A stretch of 64,000 nucleotides of DNA from an uncultured Acidobacteriota bacterium (lineage in GTDB: Bacteria; Acidobacteriota; Thermoanaerobaculia; Thermoanaerobaculales; Sulfomarinibacteraceae): NCBI GenBank assembly GCA_963814875.1, contig CAWFFJ010000015.1, positions 138,908 through 202,907 of the forward strand. The letters run 5' to 3'. The position numbers were made by a program, and so were the translations under genes. Positions within the stretch are counted from its first letter, which is position 1. Each line of letters starts with the position of its first letter. Positions 9,923 to 30,878 of this stretch are shown piece after piece. The notes under the pieces were generated by a model, which searched no databases, had not been told where the DNA came from, and worked only from the letters and a program-made list of their open reading frames with translations.

Positions 9923-10132
9923 CACCACCAAGACACCAAGACACCAAGCAGGCGCTGAAGGTGATCGATGGCTTCTGGGTCGGCGTAGTCCGACGTTGAC
10001 GGGGCTGCGTGAAGCCACAGAGGGCTCTTGATGGAGACTCCGTCATGCGAGAAGCAGCTCCTGAGAGGGAGTATCGGTTGGCGAACTGCCAGCATCTTTC
10101 GGACTCCCTTGGTGTCTTGGTGTCTTGGTGGT
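9923..10132. repeat. octamer-arm inverted-repeat element, copy 1 (no intact cargo)
   Basis: Left arm 9923-9948 is CACCACCAAGACACCAAGACACCAAG. Right arm 10108-10132 is CTTGGTGTCTTGGTGTCTTGGTGGT, its reverse complement. The 159-bp non-coding interior begins GGCGCTGAAGGTGA..ATGGCTT, like the interior next to 12865. Confidence 0.8.
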
Positions 10133-10163
10133 TTCTTTTCGCACGCTCCCGGTGGGGGGCGCG

Positions 10164-12807
10164 ATGCCTGAGGTGAGCTTCCGGCTCGACGGGCGCGAGG
10201 TGACCGCTCCCTACGAGGACGGCATGCACCTGCTCGAGGTGCTGCGCGAGGGCCTCGGCGTCACCACCCTCAAGGACGGCTGCGCGCCCGAGGGCGTGTG
10301 CGGCTGCTGCACCGTGCTGGTCGACGGACGGCCCGCGCTCGCCTGCCTGAAGAAGCCCGAACAGGTCGCCGGCCGCACCGTGACCACCCTCGCCGGCCTG
10401 CCCGAGGCGCAGCGCCGGCTGCTCGCGCGCGCCTTCGTCCGCGAGGGCGCGGTCCAGTGCGGTTACTGCACGCCGGGCATCGCGATGCGCGCGGCGAGCC
10501 TGCTCGAGCGCGGCCGCGCCACCGACGAGGACGCCGTCCGTAAGGCGCTCGCAGGCCACATGTGTCGCTGCACCGGCTACTCCCGGATCGTAGACGCGAT
10601 CCGCACCGCCGGTGAGGCGTGGCAGGACGGTGCCGAGCTCGGTGCCGGCCCGCCACGGCGGTTGCCCACGGTGTTCCACCGCGCCGGCGACTCGCCTCCC
10701 GAACCGGGACGTCACACCTGGGGCGTCGGAGCGGCCGCACCCCGGTGGCGTGGCGAGGCACTGGTGCTGGGCGAGAAGCCCTTCGTCGCCGATCTCTCCG
10801 CGCCGGGCACGCTGCACGCGGCGCTGGTGCTCGCCGAGCATCCGCGGGCGGTGGTGCGCGCGATCGACCCCGCCGACGCCCTCGCCGCACCGGGGGTGGT
10901 GCGGGTGCTGACCGCCGCCGACGTCCCCGGCGAGCGCTTCGTCGGCCTGATCGTGCGCGACTGGCCGGTGCTGGTCGCCCTCGGCGAGACCACCCGCTGT
11001 GTCGGCGACGTGCTCGCGGTGGTGGTGGCCGACAACCGCTTCCACGCCCGCCGCGCCGCCGAGCTGGTCAGGGTCTCTCTCGACCCCCTCGAGCCGGTCA
11101 CCGATCCGGACGCGGCTCTCGCCCCCGGCGCCCCGGCCGTGCACGACGGCGGCAACCTGCTCGAGGCGTGTGGGTTTCGCCGCGGCGATGTCGACGCCGC
11201 CCTGGCCGCCTCGACGCACGTGGTCGAGGAGGCCTTCACCACCCAGCGCATCGAGCACGCCTTCCTCGAGCCGGAGGCGTGCGTCGCGCTGCCGACCCCG
11301 GACGGGGTGCGGGTCTTCACCCAGGGCCAGGGGGTCCACGACGACCAACGCCAGATCGCCGAGGTGCTCGGTCTGCCCAGGGAGCACGTCGAGGTCGAGC
11401 TGGTCTCGAACGGCGGCGCCTTCGGCGGCAAGGAGGACCTCTCGGTCCAGGCCCAGACCGCGCTCGCGGCGTGGCTCCTCGGCCGCCCGGTCAAGCTCGC
11501 CCTGACCCGGGCGCAGTCGATCCGCCTCCACCCCAAGCGGCACCCGCTCGTCATGCGCTACACGGTCGGCTGCGACGGCGACGGCCGGTTGACCGCGGCC
11601 AGGGTGCGGATCGTCGGCGACACCGGCGCCTACGCCTCGGTCGGGGCCAAGGTGCTCGAGCGCGCCGCCGGCCACTGCTGCGGGCCGTACCGGGTACCCG
11701 CTGTCGACGTCGAGGCGCTCACCGTCTACACCAACAACCCGCCCTCGGGGGCGATGCGTGGCTTCGGGGTCAATCAGACCGCGTTCGCGATCGAGGGCGT
11801 CATGGACCGCCTCGCGGCGCGGGTCGGCCTCGACCGCTGGCAGATCCGCTGGCTCAACGCCCTGCGCCCCGGCGACCGCTTCGCCACCGGCCAGGTGATG
11901 GACGAGAGCTGCGGGATCACCGCCACCCTCGAGGCGGTGCGCGAGACCTTCCGGTCGACGCCACGCGCCGGGATCGCGTGCGGGGTCAAGAACACCGGTA
12001 TCGGCAACGGCCTCCCCGACACCGGACGGGTCCGGATCGAGGTCCTCCCCGGCGGCCGGCTCGAGATCGTCACCGGCTTCACCGAGATGGGACAGGGCCT
12101 CAACACCATCCTGCGCCAGGTGGTCGCCCACGAGACCGGTCTCGACCCGGAGCGCATGGACGTCGCCACCCGCTCCGAGCTCGCCGTCGAGTGCGGCATG
12201 ACCACCGCCTCGCGGGCGACCGCGCTCGCCACCATGGCCGCGCGCCGCGCCGCCCTCAGCCCTCGCCGCCGAGCTCGACGCCGCCGGCGGCGAACTCGCC
12301 CCGCTCACCGGCCGAAGCTTCCACGGCGAGTACGTGTGCGACTTTACCGTCCCGCCCGGGACCGCAGTCGAGAATCCGGTTACCCACCTCACCTTCGGCT
12401 GGGCGACCCAGGTGGTGGAGCTCGACGAGGCGGGCGGGATCGTCCGCGTCGTCGCGGCCCACGACGTCGGCCGCGCGATCAACCCCCTCGGCTGCGCGCA
12501 GCAGATCGAGGGCGCGGTCCACATGGGCCTCGGCCAGGCGCTGTCCGAGGACCTGCCCTGCGAGGGCGGAGTCCCGGTCTCGACCCGGATGCGCGACCTC
12601 GGGTTGATCCCGGCCGCCGCGTCGCCGCCGGTCGAGGTGATCCTGGTCGAGGTCCCCGACCGGGTCGGCGGCTACGGCGCCAAGGGCGTCGGCGAGATCG
12701 GCCTCGTGCCGACCGCGGCGGCGGTCGCCTCGGCCTACGCCGCCTTCGACGGCCGCTGGCGCAACGCGCTCCCGCTCGAGAAGCCGAACAAACCACAGAG
12801 GCACTGA
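10164..12807 (+). CDS. XdhD-like fused [2Fe-2S]/molybdopterin-binding hydroxylase, interrupted by an apparent +1 frameshift near 12260
   Basis: ATG 10164. Fe-S motifs CGCCTV, CGYCTPG and CRCTGY are fused to a Mo-domain (AFLEPEA, GGAFGGKED). Frame 0 is protein-like up to ...ATMAARRAALS. The conserved C-terminus (LAAELDAAGGE...GAKGVGEIGLVPTAAAV...) continues in frame +1 to the stop at 12805-12807. There is a C3 run at 12260-12262. Confidence 0.8.
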
Positions 12808-12865
12808 GACACAGGGGAGCACAGAGCCCCCGCCCACCCGAAGTGAAACCACCAAGACACCAAGG
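12786..12865. repeat. left composite terminus of the cassette
   Basis: GAACAAACCACAGAGGCACTGAGACACAGGGGAGCACAGAG (8-nt periodic CACNGAGN), then CCCCCGCCCACCCGAAGTGAA, then ACCACCAAGACACCAAGG. It contains the stop codon (12805-12807) of the XdhD-like gene. Confidence 0.85.
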
Positions 12866-12988
12866 CGCTGCAAGTGAATGGCTTGAGGCGGTGGGGTGAC
12901 AAGAACGAATCGGGCATGTAGGGAGCGGCTGGCACTAGCCCGGACCCCCAACCCCAGCTGCCTCTGGTAGCATCGCCGCGGAGAGCCA

Positions 12989-29417: not shown

Positions 29418-29419
29418 GG

Positions 29420-30658
29420 ATGGCGGCTTTCAGCTTCGTCTGCACCGAGTGCGGCGATCGCTTCCGCGACCAGCCGGCCCTGCTGGTGTGTCCGACCTGC
29501 GCGCGACTGCGCGAGCCGGGCGGCGAGATTCGCGGCGTGCTCGCGGTGGAGCTCGACGAGCTGCCGTCACAGTGGCCGGAGGACGGCTTCGCCGACCCCG
29601 AGGCGCTCGTCGCGTGGTGGCCGATCGCCGGCGCCTCGTCGCTGCCGGCCCTTCGGGTCGGCGGGACGCCGCTGCTGCCGGCCGCGCGGCTGCGCGCCGA
29701 GCTCGGCATGCCGCGGCTGTGGCTCAAGGACGACAGCCGCAACCCGTCCGGGTCGAGCAAGGACCGCGCCTCCCTGCTGGTCGTGGCGATGGCGGGCGAG
29801 CTCAGCCGCGACACCGTGATCACGGCCTCGACCGGCAACGCGGCGACCGCACTGGCGGCGGTCGCCGCCGCCGCCGGGGTCCGCGCGGTAGTGCTGGTGC
29901 CGGCCGGCGCGCCAGCGGCGAAGCTGGTCCAGATGGCGTCCTACGGCGCCACGGTCGTTCCGGTCCGAGGCAGCTACGACGACGCCTACGAGCTCGCCAT
30001 GGAAACCTCCGAGCGGTTCGGCTGGATGTGCCGCAACACCGCACTGAACCCGTTCACGATCGAGGGCAAGAAGACCCTCGCGCTCGAGCTCGCCGCCGAC
30101 CTCGCCCCGGAGACGCCCGACGTCGTCGTGGTTCCCGCCGGCGATGGCGTGATCGCGGCCGGGGTCGCGAAGGGCTTTGACGACCTCGTCGCGGCGGGAC
30201 TGATCCCCCGCTTACCGCGCCTGGTGCTGGTCCAGCCCGAGGGCTCGCCGGCGCTGGTCCGGGCTCTGAACAGCGGCGCACCGACTGCGGCCACGGTGGC
30301 CGCGGCGAGCGTCGCCGACAGCCTGGTCGTGGACGTTCCGCGCAACGCCCGGCTGTGCCTGGCACAGGTCCGGCGCAGCGGGGGCGGCGGCGTGCTGGTC
30401 TCGGACGATGCCATCGTCGCCGCCATCGCCCGGCTCGCGCGCCTCACCGGGGTCTTCGCCGAACCGGCGGCGGCAACTGTGCTGCCCGGCCTCGAGGCGG
30501 CGCTCGCCGAGGGCCTGATCGACCGAGAGGAGAGGGTCGTGCTGCTGGTCACCGGGACCGGGCTCAAGGACGTCGTGGCCGCCGCGCGCGCGGTCCACCT
30601 CCCCGAGCCGGTCGACCCCACCCCAGACGCCGTCGCCCTCGCAGTTCAGCGCGCGTGA
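29420..30658 (+). CDS. threonine-synthase-like PLP-dependent enzyme with N-terminal zinc-ribbon
   Basis: ATG 29420. FVCTECGDRF...CPTCARL is a Cys4 ribbon. NPSGSSKDRAS is the PLP-lysine motif, with ASTGNAATALA and VVVPAGDGV also present. Confidence 0.7.
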   Translation: MAAFSFVCTECGDRFRDQPALLVCPTCARLREPGGEIRGVLAVELDELPSQWPEDGFADPEALVAWWPIAGASSLPALRVGGTPLLPAARLRAELGMPRLWLKDDSRNPSGSSKDRASLLVVAMAGELSRDTVITASTGNAATALAAVAAAAGVRAVVLVPAGAPAAKLVQMASYGATVVPVRGSYDDAYELAMETSERFGWMCRNTALNPFTIEGKKTLALELAADLAPETPDVVVVPAGDGVIAAGVAKGFDDLVAAGLIPRLPRLVLVQPEGSPALVRALNSGAPTAATVAAASVADSLVVDVPRNARLCLAQVRRSGGGGVLVSDDAIVAAIARLARLTGVFAEPAAATVLPGLEAALAEGLIDREERVVLLVTGTGLKDVVAAARAVHLPEPVDPTPDAVALAVQRA

Positions 30659-30663
30659 GGTTT

Positions 30664-30878
30664 ACCACCAAGACACAAAGACACCAAGACACCAAGAGGA
30701 ATCACAGAGCCGGCCTTCACGACCGATCTTCGAGGTGGAGCTCCAATGGGGCATTGCGAGCGGTCCTCCGCCGCGGCAGACCTCTGTTACCTGTGGAAAA
30801 GACCGGCTGCAATGTTCCGGGTCTAGCCCTGGCTGCCTCGGGTGGGCGGGGGGCTTGGTGTCTTGGTGTCTTGGTGGT
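30664..30878. repeat. octamer-arm inverted-repeat element, copy 5 (no intact cargo)
   Basis: The arms are 30664-30698 (ACCACCAAGACACAAAGACACCAAGACACCAAGAGG) and 30854-30878 (CTTGGTGTCTTGGTGTCTTGGTGGT). The 155-bp interior ends ...GGTCTAGCCCTGGCTGCCTCGGGTGGGCGGGGGG, similar to the sequence just inside the right cassette terminus at 19514-19538. Confidence 0.8.

Follow-up and report, generated by a model that had tools for sequence, protein, structure and literature searches.

The 64,000-nucleotide stretch of DNA considered here, which we call the window, comes from an uncultured Acidobacteriota bacterium of the Sulfomarinibacteraceae. Part of it is a gene cluster for purine and pyrimidine catabolism, with genes for xanthine-dehydrogenase-like proteins, two amidohydrolases (one of them a dihydropyrimidinase), a DPD-like protein, an M20 peptidase, a carbamoyltransferase and pyridoxal-phosphate (PLP) enzymes. 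The short gaps of this cluster hold five inverted-repeat elements, E1 to E5, whose arms are tandem arrays of an octamer. These elements are copies of a multi-copy, cross-phylum and insertion-competent palindromic cassette, in which the sole recurrent open reading frame (ORF) encodes a nuclease of the GxxExxY family. In the ORF-bearing form, represented in the window by E4, the gene of this small Cas4/RecB-like PD-(D/E)XK nuclease begins in the 5' arm itself, which contributes its start codon and its first 9-10 codons. The elements and their arms are as follows.

9924-10132, no strand: E1, ORF-less short hairpin; arms 9924-9948 and 10108-10132, interior of 159 nt
12792-12826, plus strand: E2 outer left arm (CACAGAGR-type), CACAGAGG CACTGAGA CACAGGGG AGCACAGAG, then a C-rich box at 12827-12839
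12848-12864, plus strand: E2 inner left arm (CACCAAGA-type), ACCACCAAGACACCAAG
19539-19563, minus strand: E2 inner right arm (CACCAAGA-type), CTTGGTGTCTTGGTGTCTTGGTGGT, with a G-rich box on its inner side at 19520-19538
19595-19629, minus strand: E2 outer right arm (CACAGAGR-type), CTCTGTG-type units with a GTGGT end, preceded by a G-rich box at 19572-19584
21029-21118, no strand: E3, short hairpin with imperfect CACAAAGG/CACGAAGA-type arms at 21029-21055 and 21090-21118
27950-28416, plus strand: E4, ORF-bearing; left arm 27954-27979, GxxExxY ORF 27950-28372, right arm 28391-28416
30664-30878, no strand: E5, ORF-less short hairpin; arms 30664-30698 and 30854-30878, interior of 155 nt

The original prediction, made by reading the letters of the window, had proposed a cassette-like or MITE-like (miniature inverted-repeat transposable element) family with five members, and this family is genuine, all five having been located within 1-6 nt of where it had put them. 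It had seen no others, and this also holds: the six inverted pairs of period-8 CAC-n-RAG-n arrays found in the 64 kb make up the five elements, and no further period-8 CAC arrays or CCAC...GTGG hairpins of the octamer type occur elsewhere in it. Its remark that the sense arm always lies on the left is right in that the C/A-rich arm is always the 5' one, but this is not an orientation that could vary with the strand, because a structure of the form X...rc(X), rc being the reverse complement, reads alike on both.

The two arms of E1 match each other as complements at 100% over 25 nt, and those of E4 do so over 26 nt. Each E1 arm reads ACCAC(CAAGACAC)2CAAG, and the element folds into a perfect 25-bp stem (dG -115.8 kcal/mol, z = -7.2) placed 19 nt past the upstream stop codon, between two co-directional xanthine-dehydrogenase-like genes. 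E3, which has two minus-strand amidohydrolase genes as neighbours, folds with a dG of -35.6 and z = -2.5, and E5 begins 5 nt past the stop of a PALP gene. In E2, an element of the CACCAAGA type sits inside the loop of a hairpin of the CACAGAGR type, with the boxes at 12827-12839 and 19572-19584 lying between outer and inner arms; the 24 nt after its inner left arm (12865-12888) are a sub-terminal sequence common to E1 and to a related genome, L118, described below. Nesting of one arm type in another is found also at three other loci (L075, L078 and L104) and suggests that new copies enter existing hairpins. The homologies between interior ends that had been noticed are real, though short (about 20-35 nt), and join E1-left with E2-left, E1-right with E4-right, E5-left with the 5' end of the E4 ORF at E4-left, and E5-right with the right sub-terminus of E2. 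E1, E3 and E5 are MITE-like derivatives that lost the ORF.

The nuclease gene of E4 and its family

The E4 ORF begins with an ATG at 27950 that shares bases with the stop codon of the M20 peptidase gene upstream of it (ATGA); the start of the OTCase gene is at 28444. Translation of the left arm gives NHQDTKTPR, so that with the ATG the first ten codons read MNHQDTKTPR. The product belongs to the family TIGR04256, with 143.9 bits against a cutoff of 35, and matches PF13366 (PDDEXK_3) with E = 6.9e-41 and 139.7 bits (cutoff 22). Residues E44, Y47, E48, D84, E94 and K96, like the GxxExxY motif, show no variation among 54 homologues, and the nuclease looks intact and apparently active. The AlphaFold2 (AF2) model has a pLDDT of 91.7 overall and of about 50 for residues 1-10, which are disordered. 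With Foldseek, its best PDB matches are weak ones (E 2.8e-3, TM 0.51) to Cas4 SSO0001 and lambda exonuclease, generic for this type of fold and with no junction-resolvase signal among them; a sequence search of the PDB with the same protein gave no match.

Among the 120 best homologues of the E4 protein, more than 100 start with MNHQDTKTPR or a variant of it by 1-2 residues, and these homologues come from Verrucomicrobiota, Acidobacteriota, Planctomycetota, Hydrogenedentes and others. Given that the AF2 model shows this peptide without order, its conservation is due to a constraint on the nucleic acid and not on the protein. The GxxExxY family comprises 21,235 clusters at 50% identity (E <= 1e-3), and a survey of PD-(D/E)XK proteins published in 2012 gives its function as 'Unknown' (PMC3424549). 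Many of its N-termini are repeat-encoded peptides (TEDTE, AEDAE, RQGRQ and similar). Even homologues of 33-47% identity in isolates of Sphingomonas, Bernardetia and Bacteroides keep inverted tandem-repeat arms, with a core C[AG]C-n-RAG and a period of 8 or 9. The arrangement is fabD-[GxxExxY]-fabG with (CGCGAAGN)n arms in Sphingomonas parapaucimobilis, ade-[GxxExxY]-manC with CACAGAGA-like arms in Bernardetia, and radA-[GxxExxY] with nonamer arms, (CACAGAGGN)3, in Bacteroides finegoldii; GxxExxY genes of Verrucomicrobia are likewise flanked by inverted tandem-repeat arms. The original prediction of a local family clustered in 21 kb has to be widened accordingly: the cluster is real, and the family is a cross-phylum one, its arms being the flanks of the GxxExxY gene family. 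The top-scoring cluster representatives (P0361-P0368 and others) are proteins of about 270-295 aa with two tandem GxxExxY domains.

ORF-bearing cassettes fill tight gaps between co-directional operon genes, for example fabD/fabG and ureB/ureC. About 15 such elements with both neighbours known have an ORF that runs in the direction of both, and in no case does an antisense ORF lie between co-directional neighbours. The 3' arm lies 2-25 nt past the stop codon, and the ATG often overlaps the upstream stop (ATGA or TAATG, in the window and at the loci L128 and L130). The ORF is therefore evidently expressed through host transcription and translational coupling. Two GxxExxY ORFs (L130 1812-2279; L255 1222-1650) have no stop of their own and run through the 3' arm to end at or beside the start codon of ureC (L130) or of fabG (L255, Sphingomonas), by which translational coupling to the next gene is restored.

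Distribution and anatomy of the arms

The exact 23-mer arm CACCAAGACACCAAGACACCAAG was scanned in the contigs of 185,579 species genomes, taking one genome per species. It occurs at at least 117 loci, which belong to about 16 phyla; for the most part it forms short hairpins between genes, and its carriers include cultured Azospirillum, Caenispirillum, Telmatospirillum, Pelatocladus and Westiellopsis. Among the loci listed, there are 62 pairs of a 5' and a 3' arm, mostly with variable loops of 8-160 nt, and a GxxExxY ORF is present in 3 of 117; several genomes have multiple hairpin copies. A degenerate scan of metagenomes with ATGAACCAC(NRAGRCAC)2 returned all unit types (CAAG, AGAG, GAAG, AAAG and GGAG) among the matches listed. 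The family is very widespread (>15 bacterial phyla) and apparently undescribed. A literature search on the arm sequence, the encoded peptide and GxxExxY (PF13366/TIGR04256) found no description of the element, in agreement with the original prediction, with the proviso that the curator notes of TIGR04256 and TIGR02436 may mention flanking repeats.

The anatomy of the arms was derived from 131 distinct arm pairs. CAC and the AG of RAG are near-invariant in them, over genomes of 33% to 74% GC. Unit position 5 (A/G) covaries between the arms almost without exception (AU 87, GC 40, unpaired 1), and in 25-41% of cases positions 4 and 8 do not pair. The unit that follows from these three observations is CAC-n-RAG-n. 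Arms have mostly 2-3 units and in some cases up to 11, and their terminus is ACCAC/GTGGT, preceded by TTC, TGA or TTA; the full element is 5'-(A)TGA/TTC-ACCAC(nRAGnCAC)n ... interior ... (GTGnCTYn)nGTGGT-3'. The common units are free of stops in all six frames, unlike CACTGAGA and CACTAAGA, which contain stops; we set this property aside as evidence, as an estimated 45% or so of random octamer arrays share it. Adenine mutagenesis of the variable positions, similar to that of diversity-generating retroelements (DGR), was also considered and dropped, because positions 2 and 6 are A as well and yet invariant, and there is no reverse transcriptase nearby. Other arrangements of arms were observed too: in a Chloroflexia metagenome-assembled genome (MAG) four 5' arms at 109-nt spacing are followed by one 3' arm (L005 4767-5176), and a metagenome contig has arms every 164 nt (L245 1930-2950).

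Arrays of this kind might be thought to be low-complexity sequence, produced by microsatellite slippage and paired by chance, or else an assembly or adapter artefact. A unit copy number that varies from 2 to 11 fits this idea, as do unpaired arrays in Paenibacillus and Marinomonas and the pure (CACCAAGA)9-11 arrays that one Planctomycetota MAG has at its contig ends or close to them (L023 251-325, L042 3-93), which are either expanded arrays or repeats that break the assembly. The controls refute it already. In the window, CACCAAGACACCAAG with at most 2 mismatches has 17 matches against 0.02 expected by shuffling, none of 100 shuffles reaches 17, and the arrays are all paired, and not scattered at random as single arrays. 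Moreover, a 5' CA-rich arm consistently pairs with a 3' GU-rich one, the termini ACCAC/GTGGT after TTC, TGA or TTA are precise and conserved, the arrays occur inside long contigs of cultured isolates, and they are tied to one protein family. The probability left for an origin of this sort is practically nil.

Insertion, replacement and cargo

Polymorphism between filled and empty sites, which the original prediction had suggested looking for, is present between ureB and ureC in Chthoniobacteraceae-like urease operons. The operon of L133 (UreB 86% identical) is empty, with the usual ATGA overlap, and reads aagctATGAaaatg at the site, whereas those of L128 and L130 are filled at exactly that junction. 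The GxxExxY cassette at this site (L128 and L130-132) has TAATG as its left junction, regenerates ATGA at ureC and leaves the ends of UreB and UreC unchanged; a direct repeat of 2 bp (CT) or of 4-5 bp (ATGA(A)) is possible in its flanks. Between L128 and L130, both arms differ in type (CACCAAGA vs CGCCAAGA), with ORFs 73% and UreB 95% identical. In two Azospirillum species, the same hairpin of about 90 nt (TTCACCAC...GTGGTGAA) is found in non-homologous flanks; these two loci (L018 and L076) had been candidates for orthologous sites and were rejected as such because the flanks do not align, so that they are one element in different places.

The search in related genomes gave a different picture for the window itself. 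A close relative, L118 (flanks 89-93% identical in nucleotides, about 91%), has hairpins at all five orthologous sites, and the blocks of its alignment with the window break exactly at the interiors of E1, E2, E4 and E5. Interiors differ at four of the five sites, and the arm type at three (E1, E4 and E5), where L118 has CACAGAGR in place of the CACCAAGA of the window. At the E1 site (L118 15073-15154), arms of the former type enclose a 37-nt loop; the left end of E2 is conserved (L118 12342-12430), with homology ending at window position 12888; and the orthologue of E3 (L118 9882-9973) lies inside a continuous block of 91.7% identity. Of the more distant relatives, L119 (71% amino-acid identity) has hairpins at E3-E5, and L120 (73%) has one at E3 and an arm remnant at the position of E2, the arm types at E3 being others in both. 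At the E4 site, L118 and L119 hold truncated GxxExxY remnants inside the arms, 55-64% identical to the intact ORF of the window, and at the E5 site they hold CACAGAGR-type hairpins that share 'TCACAGAGCCG' with E5. These hairpins at orthologous sites mean that the 21-kb cluster was inherited, and that its local polymorphism is a replacement of content and not one of filled versus empty sites. What persists is the position of a hairpin; its arms and interior are exchanged, and the boundaries stay where they are. The claim that empty copies are decayed carriers stands for at least some of them, given the truncated GxxExxY genes in L118 and L119 and the likeness of the left interior of E5 to the 5' end of the E4 ORF.

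E2 had been taken for a cargo-bearing member, and its interior indeed encodes the following proteins.

12989-13642, plus strand: DarT, DNA ADP-ribosyltransferase toxin (Pfam DarT 2.6e-49; PADLOC DarT)
13627-14712, plus strand: DarG, macrodomain antitoxin (NCBIfam antitoxin_DarG NF048014, 414.7 bits, cutoff 250; PADLOC DarG)
14576-15337 (ORF as listed), plus strand: TIR-domain protein (Pfam TIR_2 2.7e-10; PADLOC ThsB-like 5.7e-10)
15334-19446, plus strand: NACHT-like/WD40 protein of 1370 aa (Pfam NNH6, a NACHT N-terminal helical domain, 3.8e-25; WD40 repeats 1.4e-98; pentapeptide repeats)

DarT scores 221.5 bits against the equivalog NF048013 (cutoff 150), and the two genes, which are adjacent with a 16-nt overlap and both above equivalog cutoffs, form a DarTG pair. 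The true start of the TIR ORF is probably further downstream than 14576. The 1370-aa protein looks, from its predicted domains, like a sensor of the STAND/NLR type. Its WD40 region (18150-19340) is encoded by 8-10 tandem DNA repeats of 126/129 nt, some of them 82-93% identical to one another; they appear unusually homogeneous and recall, by analogy, the repeat-shuffling sensor domains of NLR-type proteins. The GC content is about 0.59 in DarT and 59-66% in the first part of the interior, against about 0.74 in the host. The interior of E2 is thus a foreign, low-GC defence island with DarTG, TIR and NACHT-like/WD40 genes, and the family can carry anti-phage genes. No integrase domain was found among the annotated ORFs between 7.4 and 32.6 kb of the window. 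Upstream, the host xanthine-dehydrogenase-like ORF (10125-12899) has no stop before E2, runs through both left arms and terminates inside the element; in L118, the TGA within a CACTGAGA unit is where its orthologue ends.

At the E2 site of L118 and L119 the defence island is replaced by an Avd/S23p-like ORF or its remnant, with the nested left arms and the 24 sub-terminal nt kept. The ORF of L118 (11851-12249, 132 aa) matches PF05635 with E 0.0039 and 17.8 bits, below the cutoff of 33.8, and L119 has a decayed orthologue of it at 11540-11690; PF05635 is an Avd-like family (PMC10053308). Other cargo was seen in the metagenomic copy L219, where AbiEi/AbiEii lie between octamer arms. There the AbiE pair (reverse strand, 1180-3260) has as its neighbour an 'empty' twin hairpin whose sub-terminal sequence is the same. 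About 55 nt of the 5' end of the host gene downstream are present in duplicate, on either side of the twin hairpins, and the GC content is 0.67 for the cargo, 0.53 for the left flank and 0.71 for the right one.

Such exchanges raise the possibility that the arms are landing pads for cassettes, used by a recombinase acting in trans or by homologous recombination as in integrons or defence hotspots, with GxxExxY as the commonest cargo, for example as a small nuclease of defence or addiction, next to DarTG, AbiE and Avd-like genes. The different cargo of the E2 site in the window and in L118/L119 beside conserved left arms, the foreign GC of the E2 cargo, and the AbiE pair next to an empty twin are all in line with it, and identical arms in many phyla would offer flanking homology to any incoming cassette. 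It accounts poorly, however, for the one ORF that does recur: GxxExxY has a constant register and its start codon in the arm, and the arm type varies with its N-terminus, which resembles co-evolution and not cargo taken up at random. The GxxExxY protein is absent from the defence components of PADLOC, none of the elements examined has a gene for an integrase or recombinase inside it or next to it, and the arms stand inverted at both ends, unlike attC. We think that this explanation is quite unlikely.

Another explanation is that the elements are intercistronic or 3'-end stem-loops of RNA retained by the host, similar to REP/BIME sequences or to RNase III sites of the kind found in rRNA intervening sequences, which in operons tune the stability, processing or coupling of mRNA, with GxxExxY as a passenger and an ancient spread. 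Hairpins persist at orthologous sites down to 71% amino-acid identity of the neighbouring gene, the stems are perfect over 25-26 bp, and the stop-less ORFs that restore coupling with ureC or fabG by reading through the 3' arm would also be understandable. The closest analogue, Coxiella burnetii's intervening sequence (IVS) in 23S rRNA, has a 28-bp terminal stem cut by RNase III (PMC4990558). With the transcribed strand inferred by a GC3-based method, the short hairpins lie between 33 co-directional, 11 convergent and 5 divergent gene pairs, i.e., in transcribed 3' regions and not in promoters. The same method gave 26 G.U and 26 A.C mismatches on the transcribed strand. This neutral result shows no preference for G.U and mildly favours a constraint at the DNA level, the test being a weak one. 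A stem, moreover, needs no particular sequence, whereas CAC and AG hardly vary in genomes of 33 to 74% GC and over about 16 phyla. Neither the replacement of interiors and arm types between genomes with flanks about 91% identical, nor de novo insertion, nor identical elements in unrelated flanks would be expected of host-retained stem-loops. Rfam gave no relevant family at gathering or at permissive thresholds. None of the elements was called as an intrinsic terminator and they have no terminator-like T-tracts, for which a reading as terminators was dropped. We regard a role as host RNA elements as unlikely.

One more inverted repeat of the window is separate from this family. It has 40-nt arms, 83% complementary, with a 32-nt loop and lies in a divergent intergenic region beside the DPD-like gene; a nearby palindrome is kept in L118, and the coordinates for the two are 25161-25272 and 25001-25049. 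Neither is of the octamer type, and they may be an operator or regulatory site.

Mechanism and comparison with known systems

What we consider probable, if only by a little, is that the five elements are members of a cross-phylum family of mobile palindromic cassettes that are driven by their nuclease through homing or gene conversion. The GxxExxY nuclease would recognise the CAC-n-RAG-n repeats, probably in DNA that is either double-stranded or extruded into a hairpin. Breaks made in one copy would be repaired from another with the arms as homology, which would amount to homing or gene conversion among arm-bounded sites. In the transcribed RNA, the 25-bp stem would set the insert apart as a loop in the style of a 23S rRNA intervening sequence, so that the flanking cistrons stay adjacent and the insertion is tolerable. 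This mechanism would explain why the arms are conserved far beyond the needs of a mere stem, why interiors turn over at persisting positions and have mosaic sub-terminal sequences, and why anything between two arms can be copied, defence genes included.

Several points weigh against this proposal. There is no transposase-type protein in the elements, and we know of no small PD-(D/E)XK nuclease that mobilises such an element alone; binding and cutting of the arms by the GxxExxY protein is something that we infer. Arms of 25 bp are short for RecA-dependent repair. Only about 3-8% of the arm pairs hold a GxxExxY ORF, and the Avd/S23p-like ORF inside the arms of L118, a weak match, would fit GxxExxY being cargo and not driver. 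One clean filled/empty pair was found, that of ureB/ureC, and no shared direct repeat that could be a target-site duplication flanks the window elements or the 62 arm pairs. The hairpins kept at orthologous sites of relatives also fit stable structures retained by the host, and the covariation of the arms could reflect common ancestry of both arms instead of selection for pairing. Finally, the elements are rare on viral contigs (7 matches) and on plasmids (7 records, mostly of megaplasmids), and the same counts leave the idea of a phage or plasmid vector unsupported.

A wider claim is possible, although we hold it to be doubtful: that these are an unrecognised class of mobile elements, with GxxExxY as the mobility or homing enzyme and octamers that serve at the same time as recognition sites, first codons and arms. 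Such elements would form a cross-phylum exchange platform moving DarTG, AbiE and NLR-like genes into operon gaps, with the 23S rRNA IVS as a special case.

If the proposed homing is true, a very large protein family of unknown function gains a place in the genome and, in the octamer arms, a substrate that can be tested. There would also be a concrete model of how rRNA intervening sequences arose and move, and a way in which selfish ORFs can inhabit essential operons (fabD-fabG, ureB-ureC) through translational coupling and a stem that loops out. Arm-bounded hairpins would then be places where defence genes are gained and swapped. Bacterial intergenic repeats are normally lineage-specific, whereas this one would be a dispersed repeat with sequence conservation across phyla. 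On the practical side, the arms are an easy sequence tag for finding cassettes and also mis-annotated gene starts and ends, because the ORFs of host genes extend into the arms and those of GxxExxY genes extend through them.

Among known systems, the 23S rRNA intervening sequences of Coxiella burnetii, Leptospira and Salmonella are alike in their complementary termini and long stem, that of E1 and E4 being of 25-26 bp. They sometimes contain one small ORF of unknown function, and these ORFs decay while the stem persists; the weak PF05635 (S23p/Avd-like) ORF inside the arms at the E2 site of L118 is a further likeness. Both also have short tandem repeats of variable copy number in the arm, (GACAGAT)2-3 in the 5' arm region of the Coxiella IVS, and both are suspected of being mobile; the mechanism of mobility of the Coxiella IVS was described as unclear in 2016 (PMC4990558). 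The window elements differ in lying between protein-coding genes, where an IVS sits within a 23S rRNA gene, at helix 25 or 45, in having as the usual ORF the PD-(D/E)XK GxxExxY (PF13366 in the window) and not S23p, and in arms that are octamer arrays with a cross-phylum core. A query for 23S domain V found none in the window or at the loci L001-L120, the 117 loci included. As no 23S rRNA is present at any locus checked, we do not file the elements as IVSs.

REPIN-RAYT systems, in which REP-associated tyrosine transposases mobilise REP doublets, are likewise short inverted repeats that form hairpins and are dispersed in many copies through extragenic, mostly transcribed space. Non-autonomous copies far outnumber the repeat-flanked gene and persist for long in a lineage. 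Here, in contrast, the flanked gene is a PD-(D/E)XK nuclease and not an HUH/Y1 transposase, and no Y1 transposase of the IS200/IS605 kind was seen in any of the loci examined. Besides, an identical 23-mer in about 16 phyla is not lineage-specific, the arms are tandem octamers, and the ORF copies are sense within operons and translationally coupled.

The comparison with MITEs is suggested by E1, E3, E5 and most of the 62 pairs, which are small, non-coding, multi-copy elements with terminal inverted repeats; internal-deletion derivatives of ORF-bearing relatives and filled and empty sites are common to both. The differences are that no consistent target-site duplication was found, that the ends are tandem-repeat arrays, and that no parent insertion sequence (IS) with a DDE or other transposase shares these ends, the only recurrent ORF being GxxExxY. 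The one DDE gene found (L235) belongs to an IS inserted inside a hairpin.

Integron cassettes and defence hotspots share with the elements a promoterless content that is transcribed from upstream and exchangeable at a fixed position, and cargo such as DarTG and AbiE. Unlike integron cassettes, the elements have no integrase and no single attC-type site, with inverted arms at both ends instead, and their sites are scattered between housekeeping genes and not arrayed. Taking these systems together, the elements are best read as palindromic cassettes similar to IVSs, REPINs and MITEs, which would move in the manner proposed above.

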